A stretch of 64,000 nucleotides of DNA from a virus, in IMG/VR virus record IMGVR_UViG_3300045922_001038, positions 7,639 through 71,638 of that record. One strand, given 5' to 3'. Below, piece after piece: positions 1 to 52,302 of this stretch. The stretch's first letter is position 1; each line of letters starts with the position of its first letter. A program made the position numbers and the translations under genes. The notes under the pieces were generated by a model. The model ran no database searches, was not told where the DNA came from, and saw only the letters and a list, made by a program, of their open reading frames with translations.

Positions 1-3000
1 TATCGCTTTCCACGCGTCCAAATACAGTTTGGAGGACTTGACCGACTTGGGGTGGATGATCGCCTTGTTTGCCTTCGACGATTTCCTTTGGTCTTTGCTT
101 GCGTAAGGGTTCGGGTTGACCTTGGTAAGGTCAATCTCGTTCTTGTTGGACAAGTCCGGACCGGCAGGCTTCCATTTAGCCAGCCACTCAGGGTCAAGGC
201 TTACGTCCTGCTTGTGCGAAAGCCCGTCGTTGCGGAAGTCCTTTGGGTCGATGTCAAACCCTATGGAAGACACTGCCACCGCCGAATACCCCGGGGTACG
301 GAGGTCTATGCCTTTGCGCTGCACCAAAGACGACAGGAACGCCTCGGGACGGTCGCCAAAAGCCGGGAAATCAAAGAACGCCCCGCTGTACAACGATTCC
401 TCCACGGACCTGTCGATGGCTTTTTTCCTTAGCTCGCTCTCCAGGTAGTCCATCAACTTGTCTACGTCGATCCGGTCCCCTTCTTCTGTAAACAGTTCTT
501 TTTTAAGGACTTCCAAGTTGTCTTGGTACATACTAGCCAACAGCATGTGGTAAGCCTCTTGCAGCTCTTCCCCCTGCATCACGGTAGGTTTCCCGTTGAC
601 GTTCACTTTGTAATGCGCTTCCGCGTCCAAGTTCGCAATCGCCACCTTGCGGAGCTGCGCGGACAACTTGTTGGTTTCGTTCTCCACTTCGGACGGAACT
701 GTCATCTGCACCCCCCAGTACTTCATTGAGGTGGGGAAAGACCTTATGTTCCGTTGGTCTTCGGGGAGCAGCTTTCCCTCTTTGTCAAACAGCGTGGAGT
801 AAGTGCCCCACCCAAACTTGGCGGCGGAAGACGGCATGATTATGTCGACGGGCTTGTCCCCGTCCATCAAGTTGGCCAATTCGTTGCGGGTTTTGAACGA
901 ATGCAGCTGCGGCCAGATGATGCTCATCGACAGTTTTGCATTCCGGAGGTACGAGTCCTGCCTTGACGGGTTGTACTTTTGCTCTACGTAAAACGGTTTG
1001 ATGGGGGTAAAAAATCCAAGCTTGTTGAGTTGGTACAACTCTTTCGGGGTCAGCTCTTTGCCGTTGAACAATTTGTACACAGGATTGTTGGGACTGTCCC
1101 AAGACCTTTCCCACCTGCCTTGGTTGCGAAGGAACCGTTCCAAAAACCTCGGCGTAACCCATACCTGCGCGTCTGCCGCGTTGATGGTATCCCCCGGCTT
1201 GCCGAGCCCCTTTTCGATGGCATCCTTGGACATTTCAAGCTCTATGTCCTGTATCAGGATGGTGTTAACGGTATCGTGCTCGTTTATGCCTTTTTGCGTA
1301 GGGGATACAATCGTTTTCGCACGCTTGTTTTTGTCTATAAGGGATTTGTACTGACTGGTATGGCCTAGCGTGAGCGTGTCCAAAGTGCGGCGGTACACAA
1401 ATTGGTGGTACCTAAACTCCAAACGGATCAGCCTGTAAACCAAGCTTTTGGGTATCTGGTTATACTCAAACGTTGGAGTGTACAGCCCAAGCCGTTTGAA
1501 AAGCTCCTCCATGTCGTTCGTGTCCACGGAAGCCCCAGTCTCGACCAAAAACTCCTTGGCTGCGTTTTCAAACACTACGTCCCAGTTGACGTCTTCCCGG
1601 TAGGTCCCGTTTACAACCTCCAACTGCTGTATAGAAGGCAAATGCTCATAAGTAACAAACTTCAAATTGTTGCCGGCACGTACTTTGTTGTTGGCAACGT
1701 CTATCTTGAAATCGCGATGCTCGATCAGCAAATCGTCATCGCGGTTCATTTTTTGCCTATAAGCAATGTTTATACGTGCTATGTTGTCTAAAGCAGTTTT
1801 GATGTCCCCCGAAAACTCCCCGTAGTTTACGGTTCCCCCGGGCCCGGTTTCAAACAAATCGGGAATCACCAGCCCAACGTTTTTGGGGCTTCCCACGTGG
1901 AGCATTTTGTAAATGCGCAACTGCTGGCTGATCCGGGCTTTCTCGTACTGGAGGTCCTTTATGACCTCGTTTTTGAAAAGCTCGACACCGTCTTTCAGTT
2001 GGTCCTGCACCTCCTTGAGCAGCAGGTGTTTTTTGGTAGACAGTTCAGCGACGGAAACGATGCCATTCAGCCGGGGAACGTTAAACACCCAATAAGAAGG
2101 GCTGTCCGCATGCGCTTGAGTGGTGATGCGAACGCTGTTGTTTTTACCCCCACGGTAAAACAAGGTAATTTCGTACTTGTCGTATTCATCCTTGAACAAC
2201 AGCGAACTGATTTTGCGCCCAGTTGGACGCTTCCCAAAGGAAGGCCCAAGCTGTTTAATCCCGTCGATCGGGTTTAACGACACTTGGTTTTGCTCAAGCA
2301 GTTCATAGTTTACATACCAACTTCCATCGGGGCTGTACTTTACCAGCTGTTCAAAAAACGCGTCGTGGTAGTAAGGGGACGCTTTGTTGCCCGCACGGAC
2401 AGCCGCCACGTGCCTCGACGCCAACAAGCGTATGGCTTCCATTTTGCTGTCGTCGATTTTGTCGAACAACTTGGCAAGGTCGCTAAGGTAGTTTGAAACG
2501 GCAGCTGCATAGTACGGCTCCCCGTCCACGTTCTTTTCTTGGTTGCTCTTGAACAAGTTTGCAAACGGTATGAAAGGCTGTATGGCAGCCGGCAAACGTC
2601 CTGTCTGCTTTGTAAGCAACAACTTGATGTACAGCGCTTTGTCCTCACGGATTTGTTCCGGGGTCATGGTTGCATACGCTTCCCGGTAGGCGGCGTTGCG
2701 GCCAGAGTACCCTTTGGCCATGTAGAATTCTGTCGTGGTAAAGCTTAGCGTAGACCCCACAAACGTCTTTAAGTATTCAACGGCAGCTTCGCGTTTTTGC
2801 TCCTCCGTAATCGAAGGCATTTGGTTTTTACTGAAATGTAAATCCAAAGCCTTCCGAGTGAGGTTGTGGTAAACAAAATTGCCATTGTCGTCAACGCCTT
2901 GGATTTTCAAAGCCAACCCAGTTTCAGTGATAAACTTGGTGATGGCGTCCAGAAGCTTCTCGTATGGCAACTGGTATATAGCTGCATAGTTCAAGGGCTT

Positions 3001-6000
3001 GCGGATTCCCAAGATGTAATCTAGACCGAAGCTGTCTAAATTGCTTTGTATGGTGTTGTAAATGTATTGGACACTTTCATTTGAAAATTTGCTGCTTCCC
3101 GTGTAAATGCGCGAAGGCGATACAAACACTACGATCTTTTTCTGTAGTTGTTTGTCAAAGAAGTACACAAACTTGTCCCGTAGGATGGAGTTGTCGTCCA
3201 AAGTTGCGACCAACTCCAAAAACCCGGGCCGCACCTGCCCCAGCGCCTGCAATTGCCGGCGCATGTCATCCCACGTAACCAAACCGATCAACGTAGATTC
3301 CAGCGTGGCGTACGCATCCTCGAAATTCAGATAGGAAACGCTGTCTTTGGGGTAGTAGGTGGTTGGTACGTATACTGCGTCAGCCGGAGACAGCGAGCTA
3401 GTCAGCATCTTTTCAGGGAGCAGCTTGATTAACCGTTTGAGGTCTTTGCTCATCGACCTCGTCAAGGACAGCTTGTCAAACGCCCCGTCCCAATCTTTTT
3501 CCATTTCGTCGTCGTTCACCAAAAAGTCTTCCAGGTTTTCGACGTTAAACCGGGTAAGCACCTCTTGGAACGAGCGGTCGAACGGGTTCATGTACCCCAA
3601 GTTGCGGGCCCTGGTATAAGATCCCAACACAGCCTCCAACTGGGATGCCAAATCAGGGTTTGACCCTTTGACCTCTAAGTACTTTTTATACAGCGAATTC
3701 CAGACCAACGCCTGCACCACTTGCTCTATGTAGGGACGCGATGGGCCTTGCTCTTCGGTTTCAGCCTCCAGCTCTTGTTTTACCACCTCTTGCCACACTT
3801 CGCTGGCCTCTTCCACTGGCGCGTCTTCCCTTTCATCGTCGTCGGAAGTTTGGCTGTCCACAATTTCAGGGGAGGTGAGGTCTGAAAAGGGGGACGCCAA
3901 AAACTGCATCGTTTGGCCTATGTTGGATATTTCCAACGCAGGCTTGTTCAAAGCCAGCTGAGGGTCCTGCACGGACTCCCTGTTTTTCTGGTATTCCAAC
4001 AGCAGCTTACGCAGTTGGTTGTAAGCCGCCAGCCCGGCATCCGTAACGCTCCCTTCCCGGGCAGTGTTTATCAGGTGGGTGTAGTATACGATCTGGTCCG
4101 AAGTCTCCCGGATGAATTGGGTGTCTTGTTTGGGGGTCAACCCTTCGATTAGCTTGGGGGCGGACGAACTGGCGTGCTTTGCATAAAACGAGTCCATCCG
4201 ATCCGTTCGCTTCAAAGAAGGAACCGCGTTAGACAACCCACTAAACAACAATGGAATGGAATCATAGTCTGGGTTCAGCACTACGTCCCGTATCCAAGCG
4301 ATCAGCTTTTCGAAAAACCGCAACAATTGCTTGAACAAGCCTGCGCTTTGGCGCGTGGCTTCGTACTCCTCGAACAAGTCGGCCAAGTACTCTTCCACCT
4401 CTTGGTCCGTCGAATTGACCAAGTTGTATTGCTTGCGGGCTTGGGCAATCAACCGCTTGTAGGTAGCCTCGGGGAGGCTCATCCGCATGACCACGTGGAA
4501 CGCTTCGTGGTACGTGGTTTTGTCCGGGGCCCCTTTGTACACTTGGACCGCCCCGTCCTTGAACAACCCCCAAGCAGCTTGCCCACCGTACGAAAGCACG
4601 TTTTCGACCACCTCAAACGGCACGTTCGGGAACCGGTTGGTCCACCAACGGATTGCCCTTTTCCGGTTGATGGGCTTCATCGAATGGGTGGGCATCTCTT
4701 TCGTGCCTAGGCTGGGCTCGACGACTGGGCTCTGCGCCCCATCCGTTGCAGGCGACTGCACCTTAATTTCTTCCGTGGTTTGTCGTTGCGCTGCCGTTGG
4801 CGGCGGAGTGGGTTGCGCTGAAGTTTCGTAAACGGGCTTGAAGTTGGTGATGTGTATCCCAAAACTGATGGTATGAGTAACCGGCAATGTGCTGGCTTCC
4901 CCCACAAGCCGTTCAAGGGGAAAGTTTTGCGGAAGCTTGATCCCGCCTGTGATCGCTGAATAGTTCAACTCAGCCAACGCTTCCAAAGTCAGTGGCTTGC
5001 CTTGCAGGTCTTCGTATATGACCAATGTCTTCGAACCGTCCGGGGCGACTAGGTATGCGTAAGCCTCGTTTCTTATGCCGGACTTGGCACGCATCGCCCG
5101 AAACGTCGCGGACTTTACACCAAACAACAGGTTGGGGTCGCTTGCGTGCTGTACACGGCCACCGGTAGGCTCGATGTCGGAAGTCCCTACCAATGCCTTG
5201 TCGTCCGTAACGGGGACCACTTTGTAACCTAAGTCGTCTAAGTCGTAGGCCAAAAGCAGCTGGCGTATCGTAATGGGCTGGTCTATGGGACCGCCAACCA
5301 ACGAAACAGGCAACAGTACGTCGCTGTGGGTCAATTTGCGGGTCAGCTTGGCTACGCCGGGCTTAAAATGCTTTCCGATTTCCGAATGCTGGGGGGTTCC
5401 CACTTTGTACACCAAGACCTGTTTCTTGTTCTTGTGGGACCAGCTCACTAGAAAATCACCGTTTTCGTCTTTGGTGATGGTTACCGTTTTTCCAGGGGTA
5501 AGCGTCTGAAGTTTTCGCAGCGTGCTTACGATTTCCTGGGTAAGTTTTGTAACCGCCAACGTAGGATACACTTGGTTGAAGTTGGTATCGTTGTTGGTGA
5601 AATGCCAGGACGGAATCGATATAGGCACAAACGGGACGGTGGTTTCCGTCGACGGCTGTTGTTGGGTATGCGACTCAGGCGTAGTTGGTGCCACCTGCGG
5701 GGGCAATGCAGGCTTGGGATCTTCAACCGGTTGTGTTTGAACAACATCCGTTGGTACAGGTTCGTTTTCTATGGCCTCTTCGTCAAGGGCCACACTTTCC
5801 ACCGGGGCTTCTGCCTCAACCGAGGGGTTGCTTTCTGCCTGACCAAGGGTAGATTGGGCTTGCGCTTCGGCGAATTGGGACGCTTGTGCAGTCTCGTCCA
5901 AAGGAGGAACTGCAGATTGTGCTTGTTCTTGTGCTTGGGCCTGTTGTTGTGCTTTTTGCTCCTTTATTTTTTGATCGACTTCTTTTTTGGTATCGTTAAT

Positions 6001-8481
6001 GAAATCCAAAAAGTTTCGAGGAGTTAAGTTGCGTATGGCGTCGTTTAATGATTCGAGAATGGTTTTAGTGTGGAACTGAGTGGCAAGAGCGATTACAAAA
6101 TCGCTTCTGTTTCCTTGCAATATACCGTCCACAAATTGGTCCAACACCCGTTGTTTAGCTTTGGCTTTTTCCAAAGCCTCCACTTTTGCAGCTAAGTGTT
6201 CTTTTACTTGGTCTCTAGGAGGTTTGCTTTCGTATTCATTTAGATCGTTTTCTAATTTTTGTATGTTTTGTTTGGCTTCTTTAACGGCTTCTTCAAGCGA
6301 AGCTAATTGTTTTGTGAGAGCTTCAACCTGAGCTTTGTAATGTGGGGTTACATATTTGTCTTGGAATTTACGGGACAATTCATGTTGCGTATCGTTTGGA
6401 GCTTCAAGAGCAGTTAAGTCATCTAACAATAACTGCTGTGCAAAGCTTTTTGCAAATAACTGAACTTCAGGGCTATCTAAAACCTCGCTTGGTATGCTAC
6501 TGTCTTGACGTGCTTTTTCAAGCAACTTTTGGTTGCGGTCTAAATACATCTGCATAGCCGAACGTTTAGTATGCAGGTTATATTTAGTGCTTATGTAAGC
6601 CGTCCGCAATTCAGGGTTTGGAATCCGATTACCCTCAAGCTTGGCTTCTCGCGTTATTTTTTCAGCGGTGTTTATTTCCCTGGTTAAGTGAGTGCGTAGT
6701 TTTTTAAGTTCGTCTTCAATGATAGAAAGCAGTTTTGGTGCAGTTGTGTTTGGGGAAACAGGGGTGTTTGTGGAAGTGGGAGTGGGAGTATTTAGAAAGG
6801 TCGAAATAGTTGGTGAAACCGGCGGTGTCGAAGTACTTGGGGAAACTTGAGTATTCAGTGAAACTGGTGTGTTTTCACTAGGCGCGGTACCCGATTGTTG
6901 CGCCAGTATCAACCTAGAAACGTTGTCAAAATCAGACGACGCGATAAAACGTTTGATAAATGGCAGGTTGTTGTTTTCAATCGCCAACCCAGCAATTGCA
7001 TACGAGTGGGTCGCTTTTAACGTGTCCAACGCCAAATCGCGTTGTTCAGTTGACAGGTTTGGATTGTTGACGATGTCATTTACATCTTTCCAGTATTGCT
7101 CCGTCAATTCTTGCTGCTTTTTTAGCCGGGTCAAATAACTACGGGTCGCTTCTTCCCTCTGGTCGGCTTCTTGCTGAAAACGGGCTGGATGTGATACTGC
7201 ATCCCGTATGGCAGGCGCTCCAAAAGCGATGCCTCCCAACAGCCCGCCGACAAACGATTCAACCGACGATTCCCCGCCAAAGTTGTCGAAAAACGAAGCG
7301 TCGCTTTTCCCTTTTGTGGCCAGTTGGTAGGCGTGCAACGCCCCTGTCTGCTGGGCGGCGTTGTTGACCAACTCTTCGATGCCTTCGCTGAATGGGCCCA
7401 GCGTTGCCTCGCGTATCGAGGTAAGCCGCATGGATTTCGCCAGTTGCTTGCGCGCGTCTGACAAGGAACCTGCAAAAAGGTGGTCGCTTACGTCTTGGCC
7501 GGTCCTGAACCGTTTATGGGCAGCGTCCACTACGTCGTCCAGCAACCCGTCCCCCGTACGGCCAAAACGGCGGACCAAGGTCCCCATCTGGAGTATGTCG
7601 AACAACAGGTTCGAATAGTTCAGCTGGTATGCCTTGACAGCCCCTTCGCCTGCGAGGTATTCTACCAAAGCTTCGTCCGTTACGGGGATACCGTCCGCTA
7701 TGAGCTCTTGCCCAATGCGTTGGCGAGCTTCAGGGGAGATCAAGGAAGGATTTGCAGTGAGCTGCTTTTTGATGTCTTGGTACAAATTGGAAGCTTCCAT
7801 GTAGGCTTCCATATGGCGCATGGCAATGCCGGACGTGGTTTGCTGTCCAACCAGCTGTACAACCGGGTTTGTAGCCACCCGCCCAAGCACCTGACCGACT
7901 TGCGTAAGCTGCCGCGCACGTGCAATTGCGGTAACGCCAGCCCCAAGCAACCCAATGCCTTTGGCCACGGCCGTGCCCGGCACCAAAAACCCCAAGCCAG
8001 AACCAACGGCAGACGGGGCAATGCGGAACAAGTCGGTGGCTTCGAATTGATAGGGGTCAATGTCATAAATCGGGTTGGTTTGGCGGTCGATTTCCGCCAA
8101 GGACCTGCTGGTACGGCTAAAAATGTCATTCCCCGCAACTACCGGTTCGGAGTCGAACAACGAATAGACCGGCCCAGCCACGGCGCCTACGCTTCCGTAT
8201 ATCGTTGACGCAAAAGTATTTGCAGTTTTTACCAAACCCCTTCCAAGCGTTTCCAGCAACCCCTGTGCCTTGTACCTTTCCCTGTAAGCCTGCTCAGGGG
8301 ACGTAAAAACTGGGTATTCATATCGTTCATTTGGCATCTGGCGGTACGAAACATCCCCCGGAAGTGTCGTCGACTGCGTCGTGATGTCAAACCAAGCGGG
8401 AGGCGTATTGGCTCCTTGACGGGGAGGCTTCAATACATCGATAGGGGAAGGCGGCGTTTGGTTTTGGTTGATCGGTAGCAT
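1..8481 (-). CDS. Giant virion-packaged RNA polymerase/zincin polyprotein (crAss-like cargo), 3' end outside window, at least 2827 aa
   Basis: ATG at 8481 (MLPINQNQ...). The frame was open in the stretches translated by hand and runs off the window start, consistent with its absence from the ORF track. Contains zincin motif TTYHEAFH...EEYLAD (~4370-4515) and crAss RNAP-like motifs GHTSQYK..DKNKR (~1320-1365), INAADAQVW (~1160-1185), PSSAAKFG (~815-835), PGYSAVAVS (~270-295). Follows the cargo and muzzle genes. Confidence 0.85.
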   Translation of the reverse strand, partial: MLPINQNQTPPSPIDVLKPPRQGANTPPAWFDITTQSTTLPGDVSYRQMPNERYEYPVFTSPEQAYRERYKAQGLLETLGRGLVKTANTFASTIYGSVGAVAGPVYSLFDSEPVVAGNDIFSRTSRSLAEIDRQTNPIYDIDPYQFEATDLFRIAPSAVGSGLGFLVPGTAVAKGIGLLGAGVTAIARARQLTQVGQVLGRVATNPVVQLVGQQTTSGIAMRHMEAYMEASNLYQDIKKQLTANPSLISPEARQRIGQELIADGIPVTDEALVEYLAGEGAVKAYQLNYSNLLFDILQMGTLVRRFGRTGDGLLDDVVDAAHKRFRTGQDVSDHLFAGSLSDARKQLAKSMRLTSIREATLGPFSEGIEELVNNAAQQTGALHAYQLATKGKSDASFFDNFGGESSVESFVGGLLGGIAFGAPAIRDAVSHPARFQQEADQREEATRSYLTRLKKQQELTEQYWKDVNDIVNNPNLSTEQRDLALDTLKATHSYAIAGLAIENNNLPFIKRFIASSDFDNVSRLILAQQSGTAPSENTPVSLNTQVSPSTSTPPVSPTISTFLNTPTPTSTNTPVSPNTTAPKLLSIIEDELKKLRTHLTREINTAEKITREAKLEGNRIPNPELRTAYISTKYNLHTKRSAMQMYLDRNQKLLEKARQDSSIPSEVLDSPEVQLFAKSFAQQLLLDDLTALEAPNDTQHELSRKFQDKYVTPHYKAQVEALTKQLASLEEAVKEAKQNIQKLENDLNEYESKPPRDQVKEHLAAKVEALEKAKAKQRVLDQFVDGILQGNRSDFVIALATQFHTKTILESLNDAIRNLTPRNFLDFINDTKKEVDQKIKEQKAQQQAQAQEQAQSAVPPLDETAQASQFAEAQAQSTLGQAESNPSVEAEAPVESVALDEEAIENEPVPTDVVQTQPVEDPKPALPPQVAPTTPESHTQQQPSTETTVPFVPISIPSWHFTNNDTNFNQVYPTLAVTKLTQEIVSTLRKLQTLTPGKTVTITKDENGDFLVSWSHKNKKQVLVYKVGTPQHSEIGKHFKPGVAKLTRKLTHSDVLLPVSLVGGPIDQPITIRQLLLAYDLDDLGYKVVPVTDDKALVGTSDIEPTGGRVQHASDPNLLFGVKSATFRAMRAKSGIRNEAYAYLVAPDGSKTLVIYEDLQGKPLTLEALAELNYSAITGGIKLPQNFPLERLVGEASTLPVTHTISFGIHITNFKPVYETSAQPTPPPTAAQRQTTEEIKVQSPATDGAQSPVVEPSLGTKEMPTHSMKPINRKRAIRWWTNRFPNVPFEVVENVLSYGGQAAWGLFKDGAVQVYKGAPDKTTYHEAFHVVMRMSLPEATYKRLIAQARKQYNLVNSTDQEVEEYLADLFEEYEATRQSAGLFKQLLRFFEKLIAWIRDVVLNPDYDSIPLLFSGLSNAVPSLKRTDRMDSFYAKHASSSAPKLIEGLTPKQDTQFIRETSDQIVYYTHLINTAREGSVTDAGLAAYNQLRKLLLEYQKNRESVQDPQLALNKPALEISNIGQTMQFLASPFSDLTSPEIVDSQTSDDDEREDAPVEEASEVWQEVVKQELEAETEEQGPSRPYIEQVVQALVWNSLYKKYLEVKGSNPDLASQLEAVLGSYTRARNLGYMNPFDRSFQEVLTRFNVENLEDFLVNDDEMEKDWDGAFDKLSLTRSMSKDLKRLIKLLPEKMLTSSLSPADAVYVPTTYYPKDSVSYLNFEDAYATLESTLIGLVTWDDMRRQLQALGQVRPGFLELVATLDDNSILRDKFVYFFDKQLQKKIVVFVSPSRIYTGSSKFSNESVQYIYNTIQSNLDSFGLDYILGIRKPLNYAAIYQLPYEKLLDAITKFITETGLALKIQGVDDNGNFVYHNLTRKALDLHFSKNQMPSITEEQKREAAVEYLKTFVGSTLSFTTTEFYMAKGYSGRNAAYREAYATMTPEQIREDKALYIKLLLTKQTGRLPAAIQPFIPFANLFKSNQEKNVDGEPYYAAAVSNYLSDLAKLFDKIDDSKMEAIRLLASRHVAAVRAGNKASPYYHDAFFEQLVKYSPDGSWYVNYELLEQNQVSLNPIDGIKQLGPSFGKRPTGRKISSLLFKDEYDKYEITLFYRGGKNNSVRITTQAHADSPSYWVFNVPRLNGIVSVAELSTKKHLLLKEVQDQLKDGVELFKNEVIKDLQYEKARISQQLRIYKMLHVGSPKNVGLVIPDLFETGPGGTVNYGEFSGDIKTALDNIARINIAYRQKMNRDDDLLIEHRDFKIDVANNKVRAGNNLKFVTYEHLPSIQQLEVVNGTYREDVNWDVVFENAAKEFLVETGASVDTNDMEELFKRLGLYTPTFEYNQIPKSLVYRLIRLEFRYHQFVYRRTLDTLTLGHTSQYKSLIDKNKRAKTIVSPTQKGINEHDTVNTILIQDIELEMSKDAIEKGLGKPGDTINAADAQVWVTPRFLERFLRNQGRWERSWDSPNNPVYKLFNGKELTPKELYQLNKLGFFTPIKPFYVEQKYNPSRQDSYLRNAKLSMSIIWPQLHSFKTRNELANLMDGDKPVDIIMPSSAAKFGWGTYSTLFDKEGKLLPEDQRNIRSFPTSMKYWGVQMTVPSEVENETNKLSAQLRKVAIANLDAEAHYKVNVNGKPTVMQGEELQEAYHMLLASMYQDNLEVLKKELFTEEGDRIDVDKLMDYLESELRKKAIDRSVEESLYSGAFFDFPAFGDRPEAFLSSLVQRKGIDLRTPGYSAVAVSSIGFDIDPKDFRNDGLSHKQDVSLDPEWLAKWKPAGPDLSNKNEIDLTKVNPNPYASKDQRKSSKANKAIIHPKSVKSSKLYLDAWKAI

Positions 8482-25466: not shown

Positions 25467-25474
25467 CAAAGTTA
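25467..25474 (-). promoter_or_regulatory. Bacteroidota primary-sigma -7 element (TAnnTTTG) upstream of MCP
   Basis: Minus strand TAACTTTG about 29 nt upstream of the MCP ATG in an AT-rich intergenic gap. Confidence 0.55.
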
Positions 25475-31036: not shown

Positions 31037-31549
31037 CTACTGTTCCCGTTTGCTGATGCTGCCCCCGCCCCGGTGGGTGGACTGGGCGACTTTTTCCTTC
31101 CTGACCTGCTCCTCCAGCGTGTTCAACGACACGATGATGTCCTTGACCTCCTTCAGGCTTTTCGACACCTTTCCCACGTTGTCGTCGGTTATCTCCACCT
31201 CTTGGAAATACTTGCCCAATTTGTGCGCTGCGAGGCGGGACGACTCAAGCAGGCGTATGGATTCGGACGTGGACAGCTCCTTGTACAAGCCGACGCACTT
31301 CTTGACGTAATCCGGGATGTCCTGCCCCTCGTTTTTCAACAGCTCCGACCGTATTTTGGCGTCCCTTTCCTCTTCCGGGAACACGGAATACGGGCTTTCG
31401 AAGTCGGCCATGAAATAAATGTACTTGGCCCACAGCTGCTGGGCGGACTTGTCGCCCGACGACTGCACGAGCCGTTCAAAAGACGGCAAAGTAGACGCTT
31501 GGCTGGTAAACGAAGCCTCACCCTTTGCGTTGATCTGTATCAGTTTCAT
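31037..31549 (-). CDS. Conserved protein upstream of TerL (possible terminase small subunit)
   Basis: 170 aa; YIYFMAD..SPY and C-terminal RGG; position next to terL. Confidence 0.5.
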   Translation of the reverse strand: MKLIQINAKGEASFTSQASTLPSFERLVQSSGDKSAQQLWAKYIYFMADFESPYSVFPEEERDAKIRSELLKNEGQDIPDYVKKCVGLYKELSTSESIRLLESSRLAAHKLGKYFQEVEITDDNVGKVSKSLKEVKDIIVSLNTLEEQVRKEKVAQSTHRGGGSISKREQ

Positions 31550-31862
31550 TCGCGTTTTGCTGCTTTTTTGCGTTGTACTCGATATCCTTCAGCTTCCGCC
31601 ATTTTCTCCTGTACTCTTGGCTTTCAAATCTGCCAAAGCTAGGTATGGGAACGCGTGGGAAAAACTTCTCTTCCGGCTTTACCGTCCTCGATATACCGTC
31701 CCACAAAGACATGTACAGCACAAACAACTGGTCTTTCGAGTATTCCGGAAACTTTTCGTGCGTCCGGTCCACCAACCGCTTCCTGCGCTCGGGAGCCATG
31801 CGGCTTTTGAACAGCTCGATCATGTACCGTTTGTCAGACTCGTCTTTCTTTGGCTTGAACAT
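31518..31862 (-). CDS. Small basic IHF/HU-like protein
   Basis: 114 aa; VPIPSFGRF resembles the HU/IHF beta-arm motif. Confidence 0.45.
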   Translation of the reverse strand: MFKPKKDESDKRYMIELFKSRMAPERRKRLVDRTHEKFPEYSKDQLFVLYMSLWDGISRTVKPEEKFFPRVPIPSFGRFESQEYRRKWRKLKDIEYNAKKQQNANETDTDQRKG

Positions 31863-32241
31863 TTGGGTTGTAGGTTAAAGTGAACTTCACTTCAATCGTA
31901 AAAGGGTCGTTTGACGTAAAGTTGAGGTTGGCAAAAAACGACGCCAACGTAAGTTTCCCTGTTTCCGTGTACTTTAACGCGCCCTTGGAGCGAAGCGTTT
32001 TCACGTAGTTGTTGAAATTGAACTCCGAAATCCCCAGCTGTTGCCGTATGTGGGCCTTTACTGTGGAGTCAATGACGTGCACTCCCGCCCATTTGAACTT
32101 GAGCAACCACCGCATGATCATCTTTTCACGCGGGGAAAACCGGAAGTACCCAGAAAATATCTTAAACAGGTTATCGATAACCCCTTCTTCCACAATGTAC
32201 TGTGCAGAGTAGTTCACTGGATAATGCTGCATGTTGGTCAT
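31834..32241 (-). CDS. Winged-HTH DNA-binding protein
   Basis: 135 aa; FSPREKMI...IRQQLGISEFNFNNYVKTLRSKGAL. Confidence 0.55.
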   Translation of the reverse strand: MTNMQHYPVNYSAQYIVEEGVIDNLFKIFSGYFRFSPREKMIMRWLLKFKWAGVHVIDSTVKAHIRQQLGISEFNFNNYVKTLRSKGALKYTETGKLTLASFFANLNFTSNDPFTIEVKFTLTYNPNVQAKERRV

Positions 32242-32324
32242 TTTAGCGTAAATATCAATAGATTTTGTGTTATACCGTACTATTTGTAGTTATGACTTGG
32301 GTAAAATTTATCGGACTGGAAAAT

Positions 32325-32425
32325 TTGGGGATTAAAAATTGCGCGTGTGAATGAACTGGTACCCCCTATACCGTAGTCCCCCCTATACCCGCCGATTTCA
32401 CCCACCCCCCCGTACCCAAACCCTC
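32325..32425 (-). other. G-rich putative packaging/terminus signal at the strand switch
   Basis: Minus strand GGGTACGGGGGGGTGGG...GTATAGGGG twice...CACACGCGCAATTTTT upstream of the terminase operon. Confidence 0.35.
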
Positions 32426-32459
32426 ACGCCTTGTTTTCCAAAGTGGGCGTAGCCATCAT

Positions 32460-32496
32460 TTCCCCACTTTGGACTGGCGTGCGAACAAATGCACGC
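32460..32496 (+). promoter_or_regulatory. Early box-plus-hairpin element, copy 1
   Basis: TTCCCCACTTTGGACT G GCGTGC-GAACAAAT-GCACGC; ATG at 32504. Confidence 0.7.
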
Positions 32497-32503
32497 ACAA
32501 GAT

Positions 32504-32911
32504 ATGAAACAGGATAATAAACGCGGGTTGAGCCGAAAGGCTCAACGCCGTGAACTTCGGCGAGCTCTAAGGCTCGCCGAAGCAGCGCTCTTGGCCGAAG
32601 AAGAGGCCAGGAGCGCGAAATCACAATATGTCTGGGGCTTCTCCCAGGCAGAAATGCAGCTCCGAGAGGAGCTGCTCTGGAACCCGGAATACCTGGGTTC
32701 CGATGACTTCTGGTCGCTCGTAGAAGCGGCCACTGAAAGCCTCCTCCAACAGTCGGTGGAGGCTGAGGAGTCGGCCTACGAGGCCGAAGCTGAACTGAAA
32801 GCCCAACTGGCGCACATGCGCCAGTTGGGGACGAAATTGATGTACGATGCTCGCTCTGTAGACTTCGACTACAGGGCAAAGAAGTTCCGCATCACAAGTT
32901 CGTACTTGTGA
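32504..32911 (+). CDS. Hypothetical early protein (basic N-terminus, acidic coiled coil)
   Basis: ORF; start MKQDNK chosen from the position of the upstream element. Confidence 0.65.
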   Translation: MKQDNKRGLSRKAQRRELRRALRLAEAALLAEEEARSAKSQYVWGFSQAEMQLREELLWNPEYLGSDDFWSLVEAATESLLQQSVEAEESAYEAEAELKAQLAHMRQLGTKLMYDARSVDFDYRAKKFRITSSYL

Positions 32912-32920
32912 TGCGGGGGG

Positions 32921-32960
32921 GGGAGTGGTACGGTTCACAACGTACCACTCCCTGTTTTTT
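32921..32960 (+). terminator. Intrinsic terminator
   Basis: GGGAGTGGTACG-8 nt-CGTACCACTCCC followed by TGTTTTTT. Confidence 0.8.
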
Positions 32961-33254
32961 CTTTCTCGGTCCTATACAGATCAGTTGGGCCCCGGACTTG
33001 GTGCCTTACTATATCGGTTTCTCGGGCGGTCCTATATCCGCGTTATGCCTTGCTCCTTCCTTATAGTTGACGGGCAAACGCGTTGCGAAGCGTGGCGTGC
33101 GCCTGGGCAATTAACGCAGTGGGGGCACGGCCAGGCCGTTTTGGGGACTCGTGGGAATGGCCGGGTATATAGGTTACTTAGGCCCTTTTTCCACCCGACG
33201 AAGGTTGCTTGCCCCGATGCGAGGAGCGCTCCTCTACCTCCCCCTCGGGGGCGT

Positions 33255-33878
33255 TCGCGAAAAGGTGCGATGCGAAAAGCGCTGATCGATTGCCTTCGGC
33301 AACAACGCCCGAAGCGGAGGAAGAGAGGCGGGCCCCCTGACAAACGCCCGGGCATCGTGACGATACACGAAAGGCCGTCGGAAGTGGCCGTCCCTGGGCA
33401 TTGGGAGGGTGATTTGATCGTGGGTAAAGACCACCAGGGCGCAGTGATCACCCTCGTTGAGCGCGCCAGCCGCTTCCTTCTGATGACGCCTATACCTGAC
33501 CGCCACTTTCGACGCCGCGCTTAGAAAGCTCGTCAGGCGGCTCCCGAAAGAAATGGCGAAGTCAATCACCTACGACAGGGGAAAGGAAATGTCTAACCAC
33601 CAGTCGTTTACCATCGATACCAAGATTGCCGTCTACTTCTGCGACCCCGTGGCAGCGGGGCACAAACGAGAACACCAACGGCCTCATTCGTGACTTCTTC
33701 CCAAAGGGTACAGATTTTAGGCAGGTTAGCTATCGGAAACTGGCACGTGTGCAGTCACTTTTAAACGACCGCCCACGCGAGACTCTTGGCTTCGAAACCC
33801 CCCGGAACACGTTTTCCAGCTTCATTAAAAAACCTTCTTAAAATTATTCCGTTTTTGCGTTAACAACTTGAAACCACC
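33255..33878 (+). pseudogene. IS30-family transposase remnant with right-end inverted repeat
   Basis: IHERP...GHWEGDLIVG...TLVERASR, then in other frames SITYDRGKEM...VYFCDP and WQRGTNENTNGLIR.FFPKGTD...LNDRPR..LGF.TP. Two frameshifts, N-terminal HTH missing; ends ...ACTTGAAACCACC like IS30-family termini. Confidence 0.9.
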
Positions 33879-33907
33879 AAACGTAAGCACCCGGCCTTTT
33901 TCTTCGT

Positions 33908-33943
33908 TTCCTCCCTCCGAACCGACGGGTAAATAAACGCCCG
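33908..33943 (+). promoter_or_regulatory. Early box-plus-hairpin element, copy 2
   Basis: TTCCTCCCTCCGAACC GA CGGGT-AAATAAAC-GCCCG; ATG at 33950. Confidence 0.7.
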
Positions 33944-33949
33944 AAGAAC

Positions 33950-34231
33950 ATGACGTTACGAAAGACAGAGCAAAACACCATGGCCTACGTGAGGGCCATT
34001 TCGTATGCTCGTTACGAAGCGTACTTGCTTCACCGCGAGCTGGAGAGGGAAACCGACGAAGTTTCCCAAATTCTCTTGCGCATAAAGCGCAACGAGATGC
34101 TGGCCGCGGCCAAGGAGCTGGACGCGCAGTTCAAGGCGCGGCTGGAAGAGCTCCGCGCACGCGGCAAACGGTGGGCCCAGCTCGCCGACCAACTACAGCG
34201 GGAATACCACCGCTGGAACGCAACGAACTGA
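33950..34231 (+). CDS. Hypothetical early coiled-coil protein
   Basis: 93-aa ORF behind element copy 2. Confidence 0.65.
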   Translation: MTLRKTEQNTMAYVRAISYARYEAYLLHRELERETDEVSQILLRIKRNEMLAAAKELDAQFKARLEELRARGKRWAQLADQLQREYHRWNATN

Positions 34232-34237
34232 GTGTAG

Positions 34238-34274
34238 TTCCCAACTCCGAACCGGCGAGTACTAAACCGCTCGC
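34238..34274 (+). promoter_or_regulatory. Early box-plus-hairpin element, copy 3
   Basis: TTCCCAACTCCGAACC G GCGAGT-ACTAAACC-GCTCGC; ATG at 34283. Confidence 0.7.
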
Positions 34275-34282
34275 ACCATATC

Positions 34283-34480
34283 ATGCTGTCAAAGCGTGAC
34301 GACTTAATCCTCACTGTAACGCTGGCCATTGGGCTGGCGTTCATCATAGGGCTGTGGACATACCTCCACGCCGAACGGGTGGCCATTGCCCCGAAATGGG
34401 GCACCGTGGCCAAAATGCAACAAGGGCCGGGCAAGGAGAAGGGCTTGCCGGCCAGTCTTCAGGACAAAGCCCCGCAATAG
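34283..34480 (+). CDS. Small single-pass membrane protein
   Basis: 65 aa; hydrophobic helix LILTVTLAIGLAFIIGLWTYL. Confidence 0.6.
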   Translation: MLSKRDDLILTVTLAIGLAFIIGLWTYLHAERVAIAPKWGTVAKMQQGPGKEKGLPASLQDKAPQ

Positions 34481-34577
34481 CGGGGCTTTCCCTTTCCGCG
34501 CTTAGTCGTTTCAAACTTGGCGCGATCTTGGGGCCCCGTGGCGAAAGCCTTCGTATACTGGTTACGGAGGACCTTAG

Positions 34578-34614
34578 TTCCCCACTCGGTTTTGGCGGGT
34601 ACTTTCAAGCCCGC
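34578..34614 (+). promoter_or_regulatory. Early box-plus-hairpin element, copy 4
   Basis: TTCCCCACTCGGTTTT G GCGGGT-ACTTTCAA-GCCCGC; ATG at 34623. Confidence 0.7.
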
Positions 34615-34622
34615 ACACAGCC

Positions 34623-34817
34623 ATGGACTTCCATGAGCTACTCCACCGGGTCTGGTGGGAGGCCGCCAACCAAGCCATCGAGTGCCTACCCGAGCACCAG
34701 AAGGCTTGGAACGAGGCGGAGAACCAGCTGAGGAAGCTGGCGCTCGCCACCAAAGGCCTCCCCATCGCCCCACCACCCGACCACTCGGTCGTCCTGACGG
34801 ACGACGACGACGAGTGA
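34623..34817 (+). CDS. Small early protein with acidic tail
   Basis: 64 aa ending TDDDDE, behind element copy 4. Confidence 0.6.
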   Translation: MDFHELLHRVWWEAANQAIECLPEHQKAWNEAENQLRKLALATKGLPIAPPPDHSVVLTDDDDE

Positions 34818-34917
34818 GCGGCACCCGCCCGGGAGCGCAGCGATGCGTCCTCGGGCCGGGTAATTTCCCCCCGGCCCCTTATACCGGTTCCACCCAAAAG
34901 GCCCCTTCCCCCGTTGT

Positions 34918-34954
34918 TTCCTCTCTCCGTGCCGGTGGGCGCAAACAAGCCCGC
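34918..34954 (+). promoter_or_regulatory. Early box-plus-hairpin element, copy 5
   Basis: TTCCTCTCTCCGTGCC G GTGGGC-GCAAACAA-GCCCGC; ATG at 34962. Confidence 0.7.
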
Positions 34955-34961
34955 AAACTAT

Positions 34962-35252
34962 ATGAGGACGCTGATACTGGCCGTGGAGAACGGCCAAAGC
35001 GAGTGGGACCACATAACTCGGTACGACGGTGTCGTACGCGAATGCAGCATGCGCGCCGTCTTCTCGCAGATCTACCGCGCAAACGCCTACGAAGGCGTGC
35101 CCGGCAACCTCGTGGTGGTATTCCACACGAACAACGCACGGGAGGACGCGCACGCCGTGGAGATGTTCATCTCCGCCGCCAACATCCCCAACGTGTGGGT
35201 GGGCCACGTAGACCGTTGTGGAGCCTCCGTACCGACAGATTGGAGGGAGTAA
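34962..35252 (+). CDS. Hypothetical early protein
   Basis: Start MRTLILAV; alpha/beta pattern; behind element copy 5. Confidence 0.6.
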   Translation: MRTLILAVENGQSEWDHITRYDGVVRECSMRAVFSQIYRANAYEGVPGNLVVVFHTNNAREDAHAVEMFISAANIPNVWVGHVDRCGASVPTDWRE

Positions 35253-35270
35253 AACGCGCTTCTTATGTGC

Positions 35271-35302
35271 AACCATTAACCATTAACCATTAACCATTAA
35301 CC
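35271..35302. repeat. Tandem heptamer (AACCATT)x4.5
   Basis: aaccattaaccattaaccattaaccattaacc directly upstream of ATG 35309. Confidence 0.9.
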
Positions 35303-35308
35303 AAGCTC

Positions 35309-35632
35309 ATGAACATTGTAAACCTCACGCCGCACCCCATCAACATCGTGGGGGCCGACGGCACCGTGGTGCGCACGATCCCAAGCTCGGGAACCGCACG
35401 GTGCTCCACCCACCGCGTGCAGGTGGGGGACGTGGACGGCATCCCCGTGAACAGCGCCGTGTTCGGCAACGTGAGCGGGCTGCCGGACCCGGCAGACGGG
35501 ACCGTGTACGTCGTGTCCGCAATCGTGGCGCAGGCGGTCCCCAACCGGGCGGACGTGCTCGTCCCCGACGACACCGTGCGAGACGGCGCGGGCCAGATCG
35601 TCGGGTGCAGGGCCTTCGCGCGGATCAACTGA
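35309..35632 (+). CDS. Conserved phage protein of the NLTPH family (unknown function)
   Basis: IVNLTPHPINI...SG.AR...GLP.P..GTVYVVS...RADVLVP...VRD..GQIVGC, a widespread small phage protein pattern. Confidence 0.75.
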   Translation: MNIVNLTPHPINIVGADGTVVRTIPSSGTARCSTHRVQVGDVDGIPVNSAVFGNVSGLPDPADGTVYVVSAIVAQAVPNRADVLVPDDTVRDGAGQIVGCRAFARIN

Positions 35633-35651
35633 CCACAGCCGGGACGGGTAT

Positions 35652-35681
35652 TTCCTCACTCCGTCCCGGCACAATAACGCC
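35652..35681 (+). promoter_or_regulatory. Early box-plus-hairpin element, copy 6
   Basis: TTCCTCACTCCGTCCC GGC-ACAATAAC-GCC; ATG at 35690. Confidence 0.65.
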
Positions 35682-35689
35682 ATGAAACT

Positions 35690-35989
35690 ATGATCTACAA
35701 ACTCGACCTTGCAGACCCCGAGTACGCGGGGCAGGAGAACGACTGGGGCATCCCCGCCCGCTACCTCGACGGCGTGCGCCCCGAAGACCCGTGGGAGGTG
35801 ACCGCCCGCGCGATCTACCGCAACGCCGCCCCCGAGCCCGCCGGGTTCGCCGCAGCCGTCGCGATGCTGTACGTCTCGTACGCGTCGCGCACGTCCGGAA
35901 ACCCGGAAGACGCGCCCTCCATGCGCGAAATCCTCGCGGTCGTGGAAGAGGAGGCCTACCACGCCATCATCGGCGACGAGCCCTACTGA
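35690..35989 (+). CDS. Small acidic early protein
   Basis: 99-aa acidic ORF behind element copy 6. Confidence 0.65.
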   Translation: MIYKLDLADPEYAGQENDWGIPARYLDGVRPEDPWEVTARAIYRNAAPEPAGFAAAVAMLYVSYASRTSGNPEDAPSMREILAVVEEEAYHAIIGDEPY

Positions 35990-35994
35990 ACGAA

Positions 35995-36026
35995 GCCCCG
36001 GGGACTCATCCCTCGGGGCGTTGCTT
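35995..36026 (+). terminator. Hairpin, probable terminator
   Basis: GCCCCGGGG-ACTCAT-CCCTCGGGGC followed by GTTGCTT. Confidence 0.45.
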
Positions 36027-36400
36027 GTGGATAACTTGAAAATAGACGCGAGAGACGCCGAGATTGATGTGGATAACTTTTTAAACCCTTGACGTTGAAG
36101 ACGTTACAGAGACGGTATGTGAAAATGTAGTTACACCACCTCTGAAAAAGGTGTTTTTGGAAACTTGATAATCATCAAATAACCCCAAAATCGCGTTTTT
36201 TTCAGTCAAAAAGTTAGGTAATATCACTTTTTCTCGCTGAAAACCAATGGGTTGCAACTTTCGATGTAACTTTTTCGGCCCAAAAACGTAGAACTCTCTA
36301 GAGAGTTTTGAACTCCATCGAGGACGTCCTAAGAGGTTGATCAGAGACGTTCAACCTAGAAGAAGAGAAGATGAGATGACGAGTTGAGGGGGTGCCCCCT
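36026..36400. other. Origin-like non-coding block (two DnaA boxes, AT-rich stretch, palindromes)
   Basis: TGTGGATAA at 36026 and 36068; AT-rich 36110-36290; perfect palindrome AACTCTCTAGAGAGTT at 36292-36307. Confidence 0.45.
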
Positions 36401-36466
36401 ACCCTTTCTTCTCTTACTCCCCACGACCCCGCCGACGCACCTCCCCCCGGTTTCCGCCCGCCTTAG

Positions 36467-36498
36467 TTCCCTCCTTTGGGCCGGCCTAATGTTGGGCC
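36467..36498 (+). promoter_or_regulatory. Early box-plus-hairpin element, copy 7
   Basis: TTCCCTCCTTTGGGCC GGCC-TAATGTTG-GGCC; ATG at 36537 after a longer leader. Confidence 0.6.
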
Positions 36499-36536
36499 AT
36501 TACCCTTTTCAACAACTCAGACGACTCAGACGACTT

Positions 36537-37049
36537 ATGGAGACCAAGATCATTGTACCCGGAGACCAACTGCTGCGCGTAACCCGCAAGAACGCGGACG
36601 GCAGCCAAATGACGAACGCGCTGGGCAAGCCGCAGTACGTGTACATCGCACGGCTGCAAAGCGGCGAGGGCGTGATCATAAGCCAAGGCCACTTGACCAA
36701 CGCGCTGCGGAACGTGATTGGGGCCGAGAAGGTGCGGCAGCTTGCGGCGTTCGGGATGAACCCGGCGGACGTGGCGATGACCATCGCGCGGGCCAGCGGG
36801 CTGGCGCTCGTGTACACCTCCCACAAGGCCGGCGACCCCATCGTGGGCGTGGAGGGCCGGGTGTACAGCAAGGACACCCTTGCGAGCACCATCGCCACCG
36901 CGTTCAACCTGACGCCCGTGCAGGTGTTGCAGATGCTTTTCAGCATACTGCCAACCGACGGGGCGGTGCACGCGCCAGCCGCGACGCCCCAGCACGACGT
37001 GGAGGCCGACGTGGAGGCCAGCGCGCTGCCGATGGTTGACGGAATGTAG
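36537..37049 (+). CDS. Hypothetical early protein (beta-rich, acidic C-tail; possibly SSB-like)
   Basis: Start METKII; 170 aa, strong GC3 bias, acidic unstructured C-terminus. Confidence 0.6.
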   Translation: METKIIVPGDQLLRVTRKNADGSQMTNALGKPQYVYIARLQSGEGVIISQGHLTNALRNVIGAEKVRQLAAFGMNPADVAMTIARASGLALVYTSHKAGDPIVGVEGRVYSKDTLASTIATAFNLTPVQVLQMLFSILPTDGAVHAPAATPQHDVEADVEASALPMVDGM

Positions 37050-37112
37050 ACAGGACGCGCCCGAGGGAACCCCCCTTGGGCGCACCCTTGAATCGGTGCC
37101 TCCGGCGGGCGA

Positions 37113-37330
37113 CGTTCCACGTCCGTTCCACGTCCGTTCCACTACGTTCCACTCCGCCCCACTCCGCTCCACTCGAAACCGGGAACGTGGCCCCGCTATA
37201 CTGGTTATCCGCCGCAAGTGTCTGTGTACCAGACTGTGTTTGATTGAATGGTACCCGTTCGTCGATTGAATGGTACCCGTTCGATTGTGTCCATTTTGTG
37301 TCCATTTTGTGTCCATGTCCTTGTGTGTCA
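37113..37330. repeat. Cluster of short direct repeats
   Basis: CGTTCCAC-type 10-11-mer x6 (37113-37174); GATTGAATGGTACCCGTTCG x2 (37242, 37264); TTGTGTCCAT x3 (from 37285). Confidence 0.85.
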
Positions 37331-37415
37331 GTGTGTTGACAGGTGTTTGTTCAATGAACGCTTGAACCACTGACATTGGACTAAACAACCACTAACATTT
37401 AACTAAACAAGTGCT

Positions 37416-38245: not shown

Positions 38246-38439
38246 CCAAAGAACAAACCATACTGTTGCTCGACGCATGCAAGGAGGGGGTAATGGAGTA
38301 CCAAAATCGGAAAGGGAGCTACCAGTCCACGGAAAGGCTGTCGAGTGCGCCCCCGGAACTCGCGATCCCCACCTGTTGCCAGCCGACGTGGTAACGAAAT
38401 GCAGGCAACTGAACCTTACCCTTAACATATTGGTTTCCA

Positions 38440-48338: not shown

Positions 48339-48396
48339 GGCTTAGATTGATTGCTCCTTTTCCTTTCTTTGCCTTGGCTTACTTAATGACTGACCC

Positions 48397-52223: not shown

Positions 52224-52302
52224 GCTCTGATTGAACTTCCTGCGCCTTCCTTCCTCTGGGTTGGCGCAGTTTTGCCCTATTTACATCTTAACCATCCCAG
52301 CA

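Follow-up and report, generated by a model that had tools for sequence, protein, structure and literature searches.

Nine copies of a box on the rightward arm

According to our analysis, the 64,000-nt stretch studied here (the window; bases 7639 to 71638 of the single 71,638-nt contig IMGVR_UViG_3300045922_001038), which by the homology of its proteins belongs to a distant crAss-like phage, contains a 16-nt box, TTCCYHHCTYBGNNYY, nine times; we regard this box as a candidate promoter of the rightward genes. The major capsid protein shares about 30% identity with its Crassvirales counterparts (98% coverage, E = 6e-69), and matches to PHROG families comprise the major head protein (1e-72), the portal (7e-97) and the large terminase TerL (1.8e-135), in agreement with an earlier note on this DNA that had called it crAss-like. 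These genes form the leftward arm together with a giant open reading frame (ORF) of 3704 amino acids on the minus strand (contig 5005-16119), whose N-terminal 2827 codons lie at window positions 1..8481 and whose C-terminal half is a homologue of virion RNA polymerase (RNAP). This half matches 6VR4, the structure of the phi14:2 virion RNAP, with a phmmer E value of 1.6e-22 in three stretches, among them the segment with the catalytic DFDxD motif, found here as GMDFDVDKLY at residue 3018, just outside the window (locus L001). The homologue supports the reading of the earlier note, in which a crAss-type virion RNAP (vRNAP) takes part; its packaging into the virion is presumed.

The rightward arm begins at 32504 with the genes of eight small proteins, which have no family assignment except for e5b and are mutually unrelated (best pairwise E = 0.10), so that one shared module heads different genes. 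A long block follows, and a leftward block then interrupts the arm, after which rightward genes restart directly at the eighth copy of the box; from there, the arm encodes DNA polymerase A, a helicase, a dUTPase, a DnaB-like helicase, a Toprim protein and a GHKL ATPase. Neither a sigma factor nor a second RNAP nor an integrase was detected when 46 predicted proteins were scanned with Pfam and 22 with PHROG. The genome has about 51% GC, and its DNA was found in hot-spring and microbial-mat metagenomes, among others (20 sequencing runs listed, all of them of DNA).

When both strands of the window were searched, the box matched exactly at nine positions, all on the plus strand; the expected number is 0.26 (standard deviation [sd], 0.50), and the largest count in 100 dinucleotide shuffles, both strands included, was 2. 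The seven sites claimed in the earlier note, at 32460, 33908, 34238, 34578, 34918, 35652 and 36467, are all exact, but its total was too low, as two more lie at 48360, before the DNA polymerase A gene, and at 52247, before the DnaB/primase block. No further copy occurs in the remaining 7.6 kb of the contig. All nine matches are intergenic, 37 to 70 nt upstream of a plus-strand ATG, and no leftward gene head in the window carries one. Alignment of the nine sites lengthens the motif to 19 nt, TTCCYNNCTYNGNNYY-GGC, the three bases after the box being GGC in seven of nine copies, GAC in one and GGT in one, that is, GG in eight and GA in one at the first two positions.

A 19-nt position weight matrix (PWM) trained solely on the seven previously noted sites scores these at 21.6 to 26.6 bits; the best untrained positions are 52247 (19.4 bits), 57193 on the minus strand (16.6 bits) and 48360 (13.2 bits), with the rest at or below 12.0 bits. 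Its top 26 positions include 19 untrained ones, and only three of these fall between genes: 52247, 48360 and 63533, the last being weak. Under a 23-nt PWM, the seven sites reach 26.5 to 30.6 bits, against a mean best score per genome of 13.6 bits (sd, 2.2; maximum, 20.7) in 200 Markov-1 random genomes. A covariance model built from the seven copies gives them 37 to 57 bits, which is high by construction, versus nothing else above 18.6 bits. A scan of this genome with such models had been proposed earlier and leaves a clear score gap between box sites and background. The sites at 48360 and 52247 probably belong to the same set, mainly on account of their location; they also match exactly a pattern that was defined independently of them and keep all the invariant positions. 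Two box-like sites remain below the threshold: 57175-57193 on the minus strand, which runs antisense within the gene of the GHKL ATPase and scores 16.6 bits (18.6 bits under the covariance model), and 63533-63551 on the plus strand, intergenic near the contig end (11.6 bits), which resembles the box minus one base.

We refer to the nine plus-strand copies, from left to right, as c1 to c9. As the first element right of the divergent junction, c1 (32460..32503) consists of the box (32460-32475), GGC (32476-32478), a stem (32477-32482/32491-32496) with an 8-nt loop, and 7 nt that lead to ATG 32504 of the orphan ORF (ORFan) e1; a terminator-like hairpin of 13 pairs and a T run (32920..32953, plus strand) closes this unit. 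The copies c2 to c6 form a tandem series over 2.1 kb. In c2 (33908..33949), the box is followed by GAC, a 5-bp stem, CGGGT/GCCCG, with an 8-nt loop, and 6 nt before ATG 33950 (e2). The box of c3 (34238..34282) lies 6 nt after the e2 stop codon and precedes a 6-bp stem, an 8-nt loop and 8 nt before ATG 34283 (e3), an arrangement of stem, loop and spacer that recurs in c4 (34578..34622; ATG 34623, e4), while c5 (34918..34961) has a 6-bp stem with an internal U-G pair, an 8-nt loop and 7 nt before ATG 34962 (e5). The next gene, e5b (35309-35632), has no box of its own; a short heptamer tandem repeat lies just upstream of its start codon at 35309. In c6 (35652..35689), the box is followed by a 3-bp GGC/GCC stem that is not above background, with 8 nt from the stem to ATG 35690 (e6). 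A three-codon mini-ORF (35682-35693; ATG AAA CTA TGA) ends in an ATGA overlap with the e6 start codon. The c2-c6 cluster is closed by a terminator-like hairpin of nine pairs (35995..36019, plus strand).

The remaining copies head longer blocks. A 447-nt AT-rich gap precedes c7 (36467..36536), which has a hairpin at 36483-36498 and a long leader before ATG 36537 and heads the rightward block up to about 44580. In c8 (48360..48396), box and GGC are not followed by a hairpin; this copy lies within the 58 nt that separate DNA polymerase A (ATG 48397) from a divergent leftward gene (ATG 48338), with only 21 nt from the divergent start codon to the box. Box and GGC without a clear hairpin are likewise found in c9 (52247..52302), 23 nt after the dUTPase gene, which heads the block of DnaB-like helicase, Toprim primase and GHKL ATPase. 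The box thus marks starts, not ends, and sits where rightward transcription must begin or restart, as follows from the position of c1 just past the divergent junction, that of c8 in a divergent gap, and the ends of e1 and e6, which carry terminator-like hairpins and not boxes.

Hairpins between the box and the start codon

In c1 to c5, the layout is box, 1 to 2 nt, a GC-rich stem of 5 to 6 bp, an A-rich loop of 8 nt, and an ATG 6 to 8 nt past the stem. The minimum-energy fold of c7 has 6 bp and a 4-nt loop, not 4 bp and an 8-nt loop, with the ATG about 40 nt further on, and no convincing hairpin follows the box in c8 and c9. The fixed box-hairpin geometry described in the earlier note is confirmed, with c1 to c5 in full agreement, a stem of just 3 bp in c6 and a best loop of 4 nt in c7; the note's statement that the ATG follows the stem by 6 to 8 nt in six of seven copies is correct (6 to 8 nt in c1 to c5, 8 nt in c6). 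Box and hairpin, which it had treated as one unit, are joined in most copies but separable, as the two added sites have no hairpin. Since c8 and c9 keep box and GGC without it, the box is the autonomous unit, and the conservation of GGC does not depend on the stem. In six of the nine copies, the fold energy of the 24 nt after the box is in the lowest 0.3 to 4% of 3000 random 24-mers from the window; that of c6, at 20%, is unremarkable. The predicted stems of c1 to c5 and c7 persist at 60 to 70°C, which matters because the DNA was found in hot-spring and microbial-mat metagenomes.

The earlier description of stems that differ but keep pairing is overstated, since a compensatory change is found at only one of the six stem pairs (GC, AU, UA); two pairs are invariant, two change on one side (G-C to G-U), and one departs by unpaired cells only. 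The stem is mostly a conserved sequence, GCGNGY/RCNCGC, and the loop varies. The G-T pairs described before are real, with four in c2 to c5, and the plus strand folds 3.1 to 4.7 kcal/mol more stably than its complement in five of six hairpin copies (all but c1). Overall, a structure is favored over a protein-binding dyad, though only moderately, by the G-U pairs, by one position at which three types of pair occur and by the differing stems of c6 and c7.

Two copies show additional pairing upstream. The c1 box forms the 3' arm of an 11-bp inverted repeat without mismatches (32437-32447 and 32463-32473, separated by 15 nt), which might act as an operator or adopt a DNA structure at the first early promoter; it is kept in a variant contig (L003), whose 130-nt indel ends at the 5' edge of the repeat. 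The c6 box is embedded in a strong hairpin (35638-35670) directly after the e5b stop codon (minimum free energy of 35633-35695, -24.6 kcal/mol; z = -4.4), which is possibly a terminator that overlaps the promoter after it. Since only c1 and c6 of the nine copies pair upstream in this way, such pairing was rejected as a general feature.

A box next to an inverted repeat recalls phage N4, whose injected vRNAP prefers single-stranded templates in vitro and has inverted repeats at its early promoters, the hairpin being formed by DNA and held in the active-site cleft of an enzyme that is T7-like, as described in the parts of PMC13434306 consulted here. In an N4-style promoter, box and inverted repeat would be extruded as a DNA hairpin, and transcription would start downstream of the stem, 1 to 3 nt before the ATG, so that the mRNAs would be almost leaderless. 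The box-stem-ATG geometry fixed in six copies would suit such a model, as would the A that always follows the 3' arm of the stem, the larger inverted repeats that include the box at c1 and c6, and the preference of gp66, the phi14:2 virion RNAP, for single-stranded templates in vitro, which it shares with N4 vRNAP according to the parts of the work seen. However, the hairpin lies downstream of the conserved box here and is absent from two to three of nine copies, c8 and c9 having box and GGC alone, and GGC does not depend on the stem. Moreover, the loops are of 8 nt and variable, the G-T pairs favor the non-template strand or RNA, not the template strand, and the polymerase is of another family (two-barrel, 6VR4-like). 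The N4 analogy drawn in the earlier note thus fails on both geometry and polymerase family, and we deem an N4-style DNA promoter quite improbable.

Since the pairing favors RNA, the repeats might instead be an RNA-level element without promoter activity, namely a processing site or a translational operator that is bound by a phage or host protein in longer transcripts that start at other promoters. The stem sequence is conserved and the loop varies, the spacing from hairpin to ATG is constant, and c3 follows the e2 stop codon by 6 nt with no terminator, so that a read-through RNA would include c3, all of which such an element could accommodate. On the other hand, c1 and c8 have neither an upstream plus-strand gene nor an obvious promoter, the distance from box to ATG ranges from 37 to 70 nt, so that the box is not tied to translation, stems of 5 to 6 bp are too short for RNase III, and the sharp, position-specific information of the box is unlike the preferences of S1 or RNase E. 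We consider this explanation improbable.

A candidate promoter and its presumed polymerase

Our preferred reading, to which we give an even chance, is that the box is a phage-specific, single-block promoter read by the injected (virion) RNAP. We infer promoter function, the polymerase that reads the box, the +1 position and the role of the hairpin from the sequence, and the vRNAP would be assigned by exclusion and by analogy with phi14:2. According to the parts of the phi14:2 preprint consulted, the early class of that phage comprises the complete rightward replicative module, which gp66, the rifampicin-resistant virion RNAP, transcribes; the leftward middle and late genes use host RNAP. The RNAP encoded here is of the same family, as indicated by the DFDxD motif and the homology to 6VR4, and the rightward arm likewise combines ORFans with the replication module, RNAP and capsid genes lying on the leftward arm. 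The distribution of the box has the shape of the phi14:2 vRNAP regulon, which supports assigning it to the vRNAP. Unlike in phi14:2, the RNAP is fused into a protein of 3704 amino acids, in a genome of about 51% GC from hot-spring mats.

Sequence-specific initiation by two-barrel virion RNAPs has a precedent in the Thermus phage P23-45, where, in the parts of PMC10770324 consulted, a strongly conserved motif lies directly upstream of the pre-early start sites mapped by ONT-cappable-seq and ChIP-seq. In both phages, as far as that source was seen, the virion RNAP is fused to a giant structural protein, the phage is thermophilic and a single motif precedes the starts; in contrast, P23-45 is a siphovirus with an AT-rich motif, and its start sites are mapped where ours are predicted. 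The earlier statement that there is no defined promoter consensus for a crAss vRNAP agrees with the literature searched, in which we found none, the supplementary promoter tables of phi14:2 and P23-45 lying outside that search.

The architecture of the box also has a counterpart elsewhere. Promoters of T7-type single-subunit RNAPs are blocks of about 17 to 19 nt that abut +1, with G-rich initiation and stem-loops near the 5' end of the transcript. The single conserved block abutting the proposed +1, the G-rich start and the 5' stem-loops are thus similar, although the polymerase folds are unrelated and the sequences are not alike; there is no T7-like RNAP among the proteins scanned.

Host-type promoters look different. 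The primary-sigma promoters of Bacteroidota have a -7 element, TAnnTTTG, and a -33 element, TTTG. The 23 TAnnTTTG matches in the window all fall outside the cassettes, so that the box does differ from this consensus, as the earlier note had said. None of the nine boxes has TA at the positions of the -7 element, there is no conserved upstream -33/-35 block, and the box is a single block with neither an AT-rich -10 nor a -35 element. A scan with the sigma-70 consensus, two hexamers 16 to 18 nt apart, over 31500-38500 and 44000-53000 detected no site at any cassette. Sigma-54 and extracytoplasmic function (ECF)-type readings were rejected by eye, since the GG/GC spacing is inconsistent and the block too short for a -35 plus a -10 element; the loop as a -10 with TTCC as a -35 element was also rejected, as there is no common hexamer in the loop across the nine copies. 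By contrast, a Bacteroidota-type -7 element, TAACTTTG (25467..25474, minus strand), lies 29 nt upstream of the ATG of the gene for the major capsid protein, and a Shine-Dalgarno-like 4-mer precedes only 2 of 46 start codons; from these two sequence features, a Bacteroidota-like host fits, which would be expected to be a thermophile living in the mats.

Nevertheless, the box could be a promoter read not by the injected RNAP but by host RNAP, together with an alternative sigma factor of the host or with a specificity factor that the phage encodes or its virion brings in; this rival is serious, though we consider it unlikely. CTTTG is present at box positions 8 to 12 in three of nine copies, about 5 to 7 nt before the proposed start, and loosely recalls the TTTG of the -7 element. 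Many rightward ORFans have no assigned function, and a sigma-like or specificity factor could be hidden among the roughly 30 ORFans of the genome that lack one. Against this rival, all nine copies lack both TA at the -7 positions and the upstream -33/-35 block, there is no AT-rich melting element, the Pfam and PHROG scans found no sigma factor, and the capsid gene uses a different, canonical-looking element. In addition, c1 must fire before any phage protein is made, so that its reader must be a host or a virion component, which we count against it too.

The possibility of such a hidden factor is one of several points that weigh against a promoter read by the vRNAP, and some of the others also speak for host RNAP. 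The phi14:2 early transcripts have no detectable common upstream motif, unlike the arm described here, which is marked by a sharp 19-nt motif, and gp66 is non-specific on single-stranded DNA in vitro, in the parts of the phi14:2 preprint consulted; a sequence-specific crAss vRNAP is therefore not established anywhere. The replication genes of crAss001 are classed as middle, not early, in the parts of PMC8375218 consulted. Both the missing motif of the phi14:2 vRNAP transcripts and this timing count in favor of host RNAP as the reader. Furthermore, c8 and c9 are weak under the 23-nt PWM, at 8.4 and 7.4 bits, scores that are equalled or exceeded at 17 and 24 of 143,232 positions, and the rightward block of c7 has three box-free gaps of about 200 nt, so that the box need not be the sole rightward promoter. 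Covariation is weak, with one of six pairs compensatory and a score that was reached by 17 of 500 shuffles. The evidence comes from the paralogous copies of one genome plus one variant of c1, and the distant TerL relatives, at about 38% identity at the closest in the three collections searched, have no box; the copies may derive from one duplicated module, in which case part of their similarity and geometry would reflect ancestry and not constraint. Taken together, the reading put forward in the earlier note survives in part: a start-associated box on the rightward arm and a vRNAP homologue are present, but the N4 analogy fails and the covariation is weak.

If the box is a vRNAP promoter, the following picture emerges. 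TTCCYNNCTYNGNNYY-GGC would drive the rightward arm, that is, the early ORFans and the replication genes, and its reader would be the virion-delivered two-barrel RNAP encoded in the 3704-aa giant protein. Initiation would occur at or beside the G after the box, with RNAs that begin GGC and predicted +1 positions at 32476, 33924, 34254, 34594, 34934, 35668, 36483, 48376 and 52263. Initiation at the box is favored by c1 and c8, where there is no room for another upstream promoter. The resulting leaders, of 21 to 54 nt across the copies, would have ordinary lengths. For the ORFan cluster, roughly the first 21 bases of the transcript would fold into a GC-rich hairpin at the 5' end of a 22- to 29-nt leader, and the start codon is found in an unstructured A/C-rich stretch, 6 to 8 nt past the stem, with no Shine-Dalgarno sequence. 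Stem-loops at the 5' terminus are known to protect transcripts, and the hairpin would plausibly protect or tune the short ORFan mRNAs; the invariant one-base spacing from box to stem would be explained if the hairpin must sit at the extreme 5' end of the RNA. The promoter-leader module would thereby be a portable regulatory cassette, given that the same module heads unrelated genes.

Variation, relatives and significance

The variant contig L003 is the sole one available for cassette comparison. It is 92.5% identical in the early region versus 99.6% in the structural genes, and its c1 is 100% identical from about -24 to the ATG, the coding DNA diverging just after the ATG; the flanks of c1 show the 130-nt indel, which ends just upstream, and dense substitutions. 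The early ORFan cluster (34000-36000) has 63% GC versus about 51% elsewhere (44 to 57% in the rest of the window), which suggests that its genes came from a GC-rich source. The frameshifted remnant of an IS30-type (rve) transposase (Pfam rve E = 0.0025, one fragment) lies at about 33270-33840, after the e1 terminator and before c2; such a remnant is unusual in the early region of a lytic-type phage and could hint at the host.

These data bear on the alternative, also raised in the earlier note, that the repeats are primarily recombination sites for the shuffling of gene cassettes, integron attC-like or PeSL-like, with regulation as a secondary role. The same module before unrelated ORFans, the contrast in identity between early and structural regions with an indel breakpoint beside c1 (in one variant contig), and the GC-rich cluster with the IS30-like remnant inside are in its favor, and PeSL cassettes are a precedent in the parts of PMC2839356 consulted. 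Conversely, there is no integrase or recombinase in the Pfam scans, the sites lie 5' of genes in one orientation with a geometry linked to the start codon, and c8 and c9 head conserved replication operons, not cassettes. Integron attC sites, which are long imperfect palindromes at cassette 3' ends and go with an integron integrase, were rejected, considering the position of the sites 5' of genes, the stems of 5 to 6 bp and the lack of an integrase in the Pfam scans. As a primary function, we deem recombination highly improbable; since homologous recombination between repeats needs no dedicated site, though, this explanation is compatible with a promoter and not a true rival. The earlier alternative hence fits the PeSL precedent, as far as that source was seen, but does not exclude a promoter, and a single variant contig bears on it.

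PeSL cassettes of T4-type phages are promoter and stem-loop modules that precede ORFans and mediate modular exchange (PMC2839356 and PMC4122927, in part). A few copies lie beside replication genes such as that of DNA polymerase, and G-T pairs occur in the stems; the promoters follow the sigma-70 consensus, and the stem-loops are terminators at variable positions, followed by a Shine-Dalgarno sequence (PMC2839356, in part). To the extent covered by these sources, the candidate modules described here would be similar in being repeated before ORFans, in an early region that is hypervariable in the one variant contig, with some by replication genes, and in having G-T pairs in the stems. The present box, however, is not sigma-70-like, and its hairpin is fixed in position and followed by A/C-rich sequence, with neither a T run nor a Shine-Dalgarno sequence. 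The likeness, which draws on the island of c1 identity in L003, the 63% GC cluster and the IS30-like remnant, is by analogy a functional one only.

We also searched for relatives. TerL searches retrieved 34 loci among viral contigs (3 nearly identical fragments, the others at 35 to 45% identity), 20 among metagenome contigs (mostly at 35 to 47% identity, with one 41-residue fragment at 59%) and 1 among genome contigs, at 35% identity. Searches with DNA polymerase A, the protein of the gene headed by c7 (e7) and DnaB found no relative, that with e5b found seven loci in unrelated phages, and an exact 22-nt piece of c4 was found in 0 contigs. The box pattern is absent from the loci of the relatives, except for c1 in L003 and one chance match in L026. 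Relatives at about 38% TerL identity have 27 to 33% GC, and no repeated box or hairpin was seen before the first rightward genes of five relatives in a cursory inspection by eye, no motif search having been made.

Several features around the cassettes deserve mention. In the divergent junction between the terminase-side genes and c1, a direct repeat, GTMCCCCCTATACC, is present in two copies (32359-32389), in a region that may be a genome end or a packaging region; C-rich blocks precede the first rightward gene in distant relatives too (L006, L007, L012, L026 and L028). The non-coding gap at 36020-36466, between the terminator-like hairpin and c7, contains two exact copies of TGTGGATAACTT, at 36026 and 36068, which we take to resemble DnaA boxes, and a second direct repeat of 24 nt at 36221 and 36264; the gap could hold a replication origin or a non-coding RNA. 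The early arm of phi14:2 also has long intergenic regions, with high transcription (phi14:2 preprint, in part). The block after c7 includes five ORFs with pentapeptide repeats (40686-44580; Pfam E values of 1e-12 to 8e-34), which may be DNA-mimic or anti-defence proteins, and the leftward block that interrupts the rightward arm encodes an endolysin (45826-46446, minus strand; PHROG 435, E = 3.7e-25). At the contig start, a second giant ORF of at least 1668 amino acids (L001, 1-5004, minus strand) has a weak match to an exonuclease PHROG (1.1e-07) and runs off the contig. The genome is probably incomplete, as the contig ends do not overlap. Neither Rfam matches at gathering thresholds nor tRNA genes were found in the window.

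These results bear on how an injected crAss-like RNAP finds the early genes, for which phi14:2 is the one case studied; crAss-like phages rank with the most abundant phages of the human gut and are widespread in the environment. We tentatively propose, somewhat short of even confidence, that the box represents the first sequence-defined promoter class for a crAss-type (two-barrel, QDE-1-like) virion RNAP, namely a T7-like block, TTCCYNNCTYNGNNYY, that abuts a GGC start and serves the whole rightward regulon of a thermophilic crAss-like phage, with a co-inherited 5' RNA hairpin on the ORFan mRNAs. If this is true, a crAss vRNAP could for the first time be made to transcribe from specific promoters in a reconstituted system, and phi14:2 would lack a motif owing to divergence or to a missing factor and not for want of specificity. 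With variants in box, GGC and stem, the nine crisp copies would be concrete templates for transcription in vitro and for structural studies of an enzyme that is probably thermostable, and the box would serve as a search model for early promoters in environmental crAss-like genomes. It would also extend the idea of a portable promoter and stem-loop cassette from T4-type phages, with their host-type promoters, to a phage with its own polymerase.

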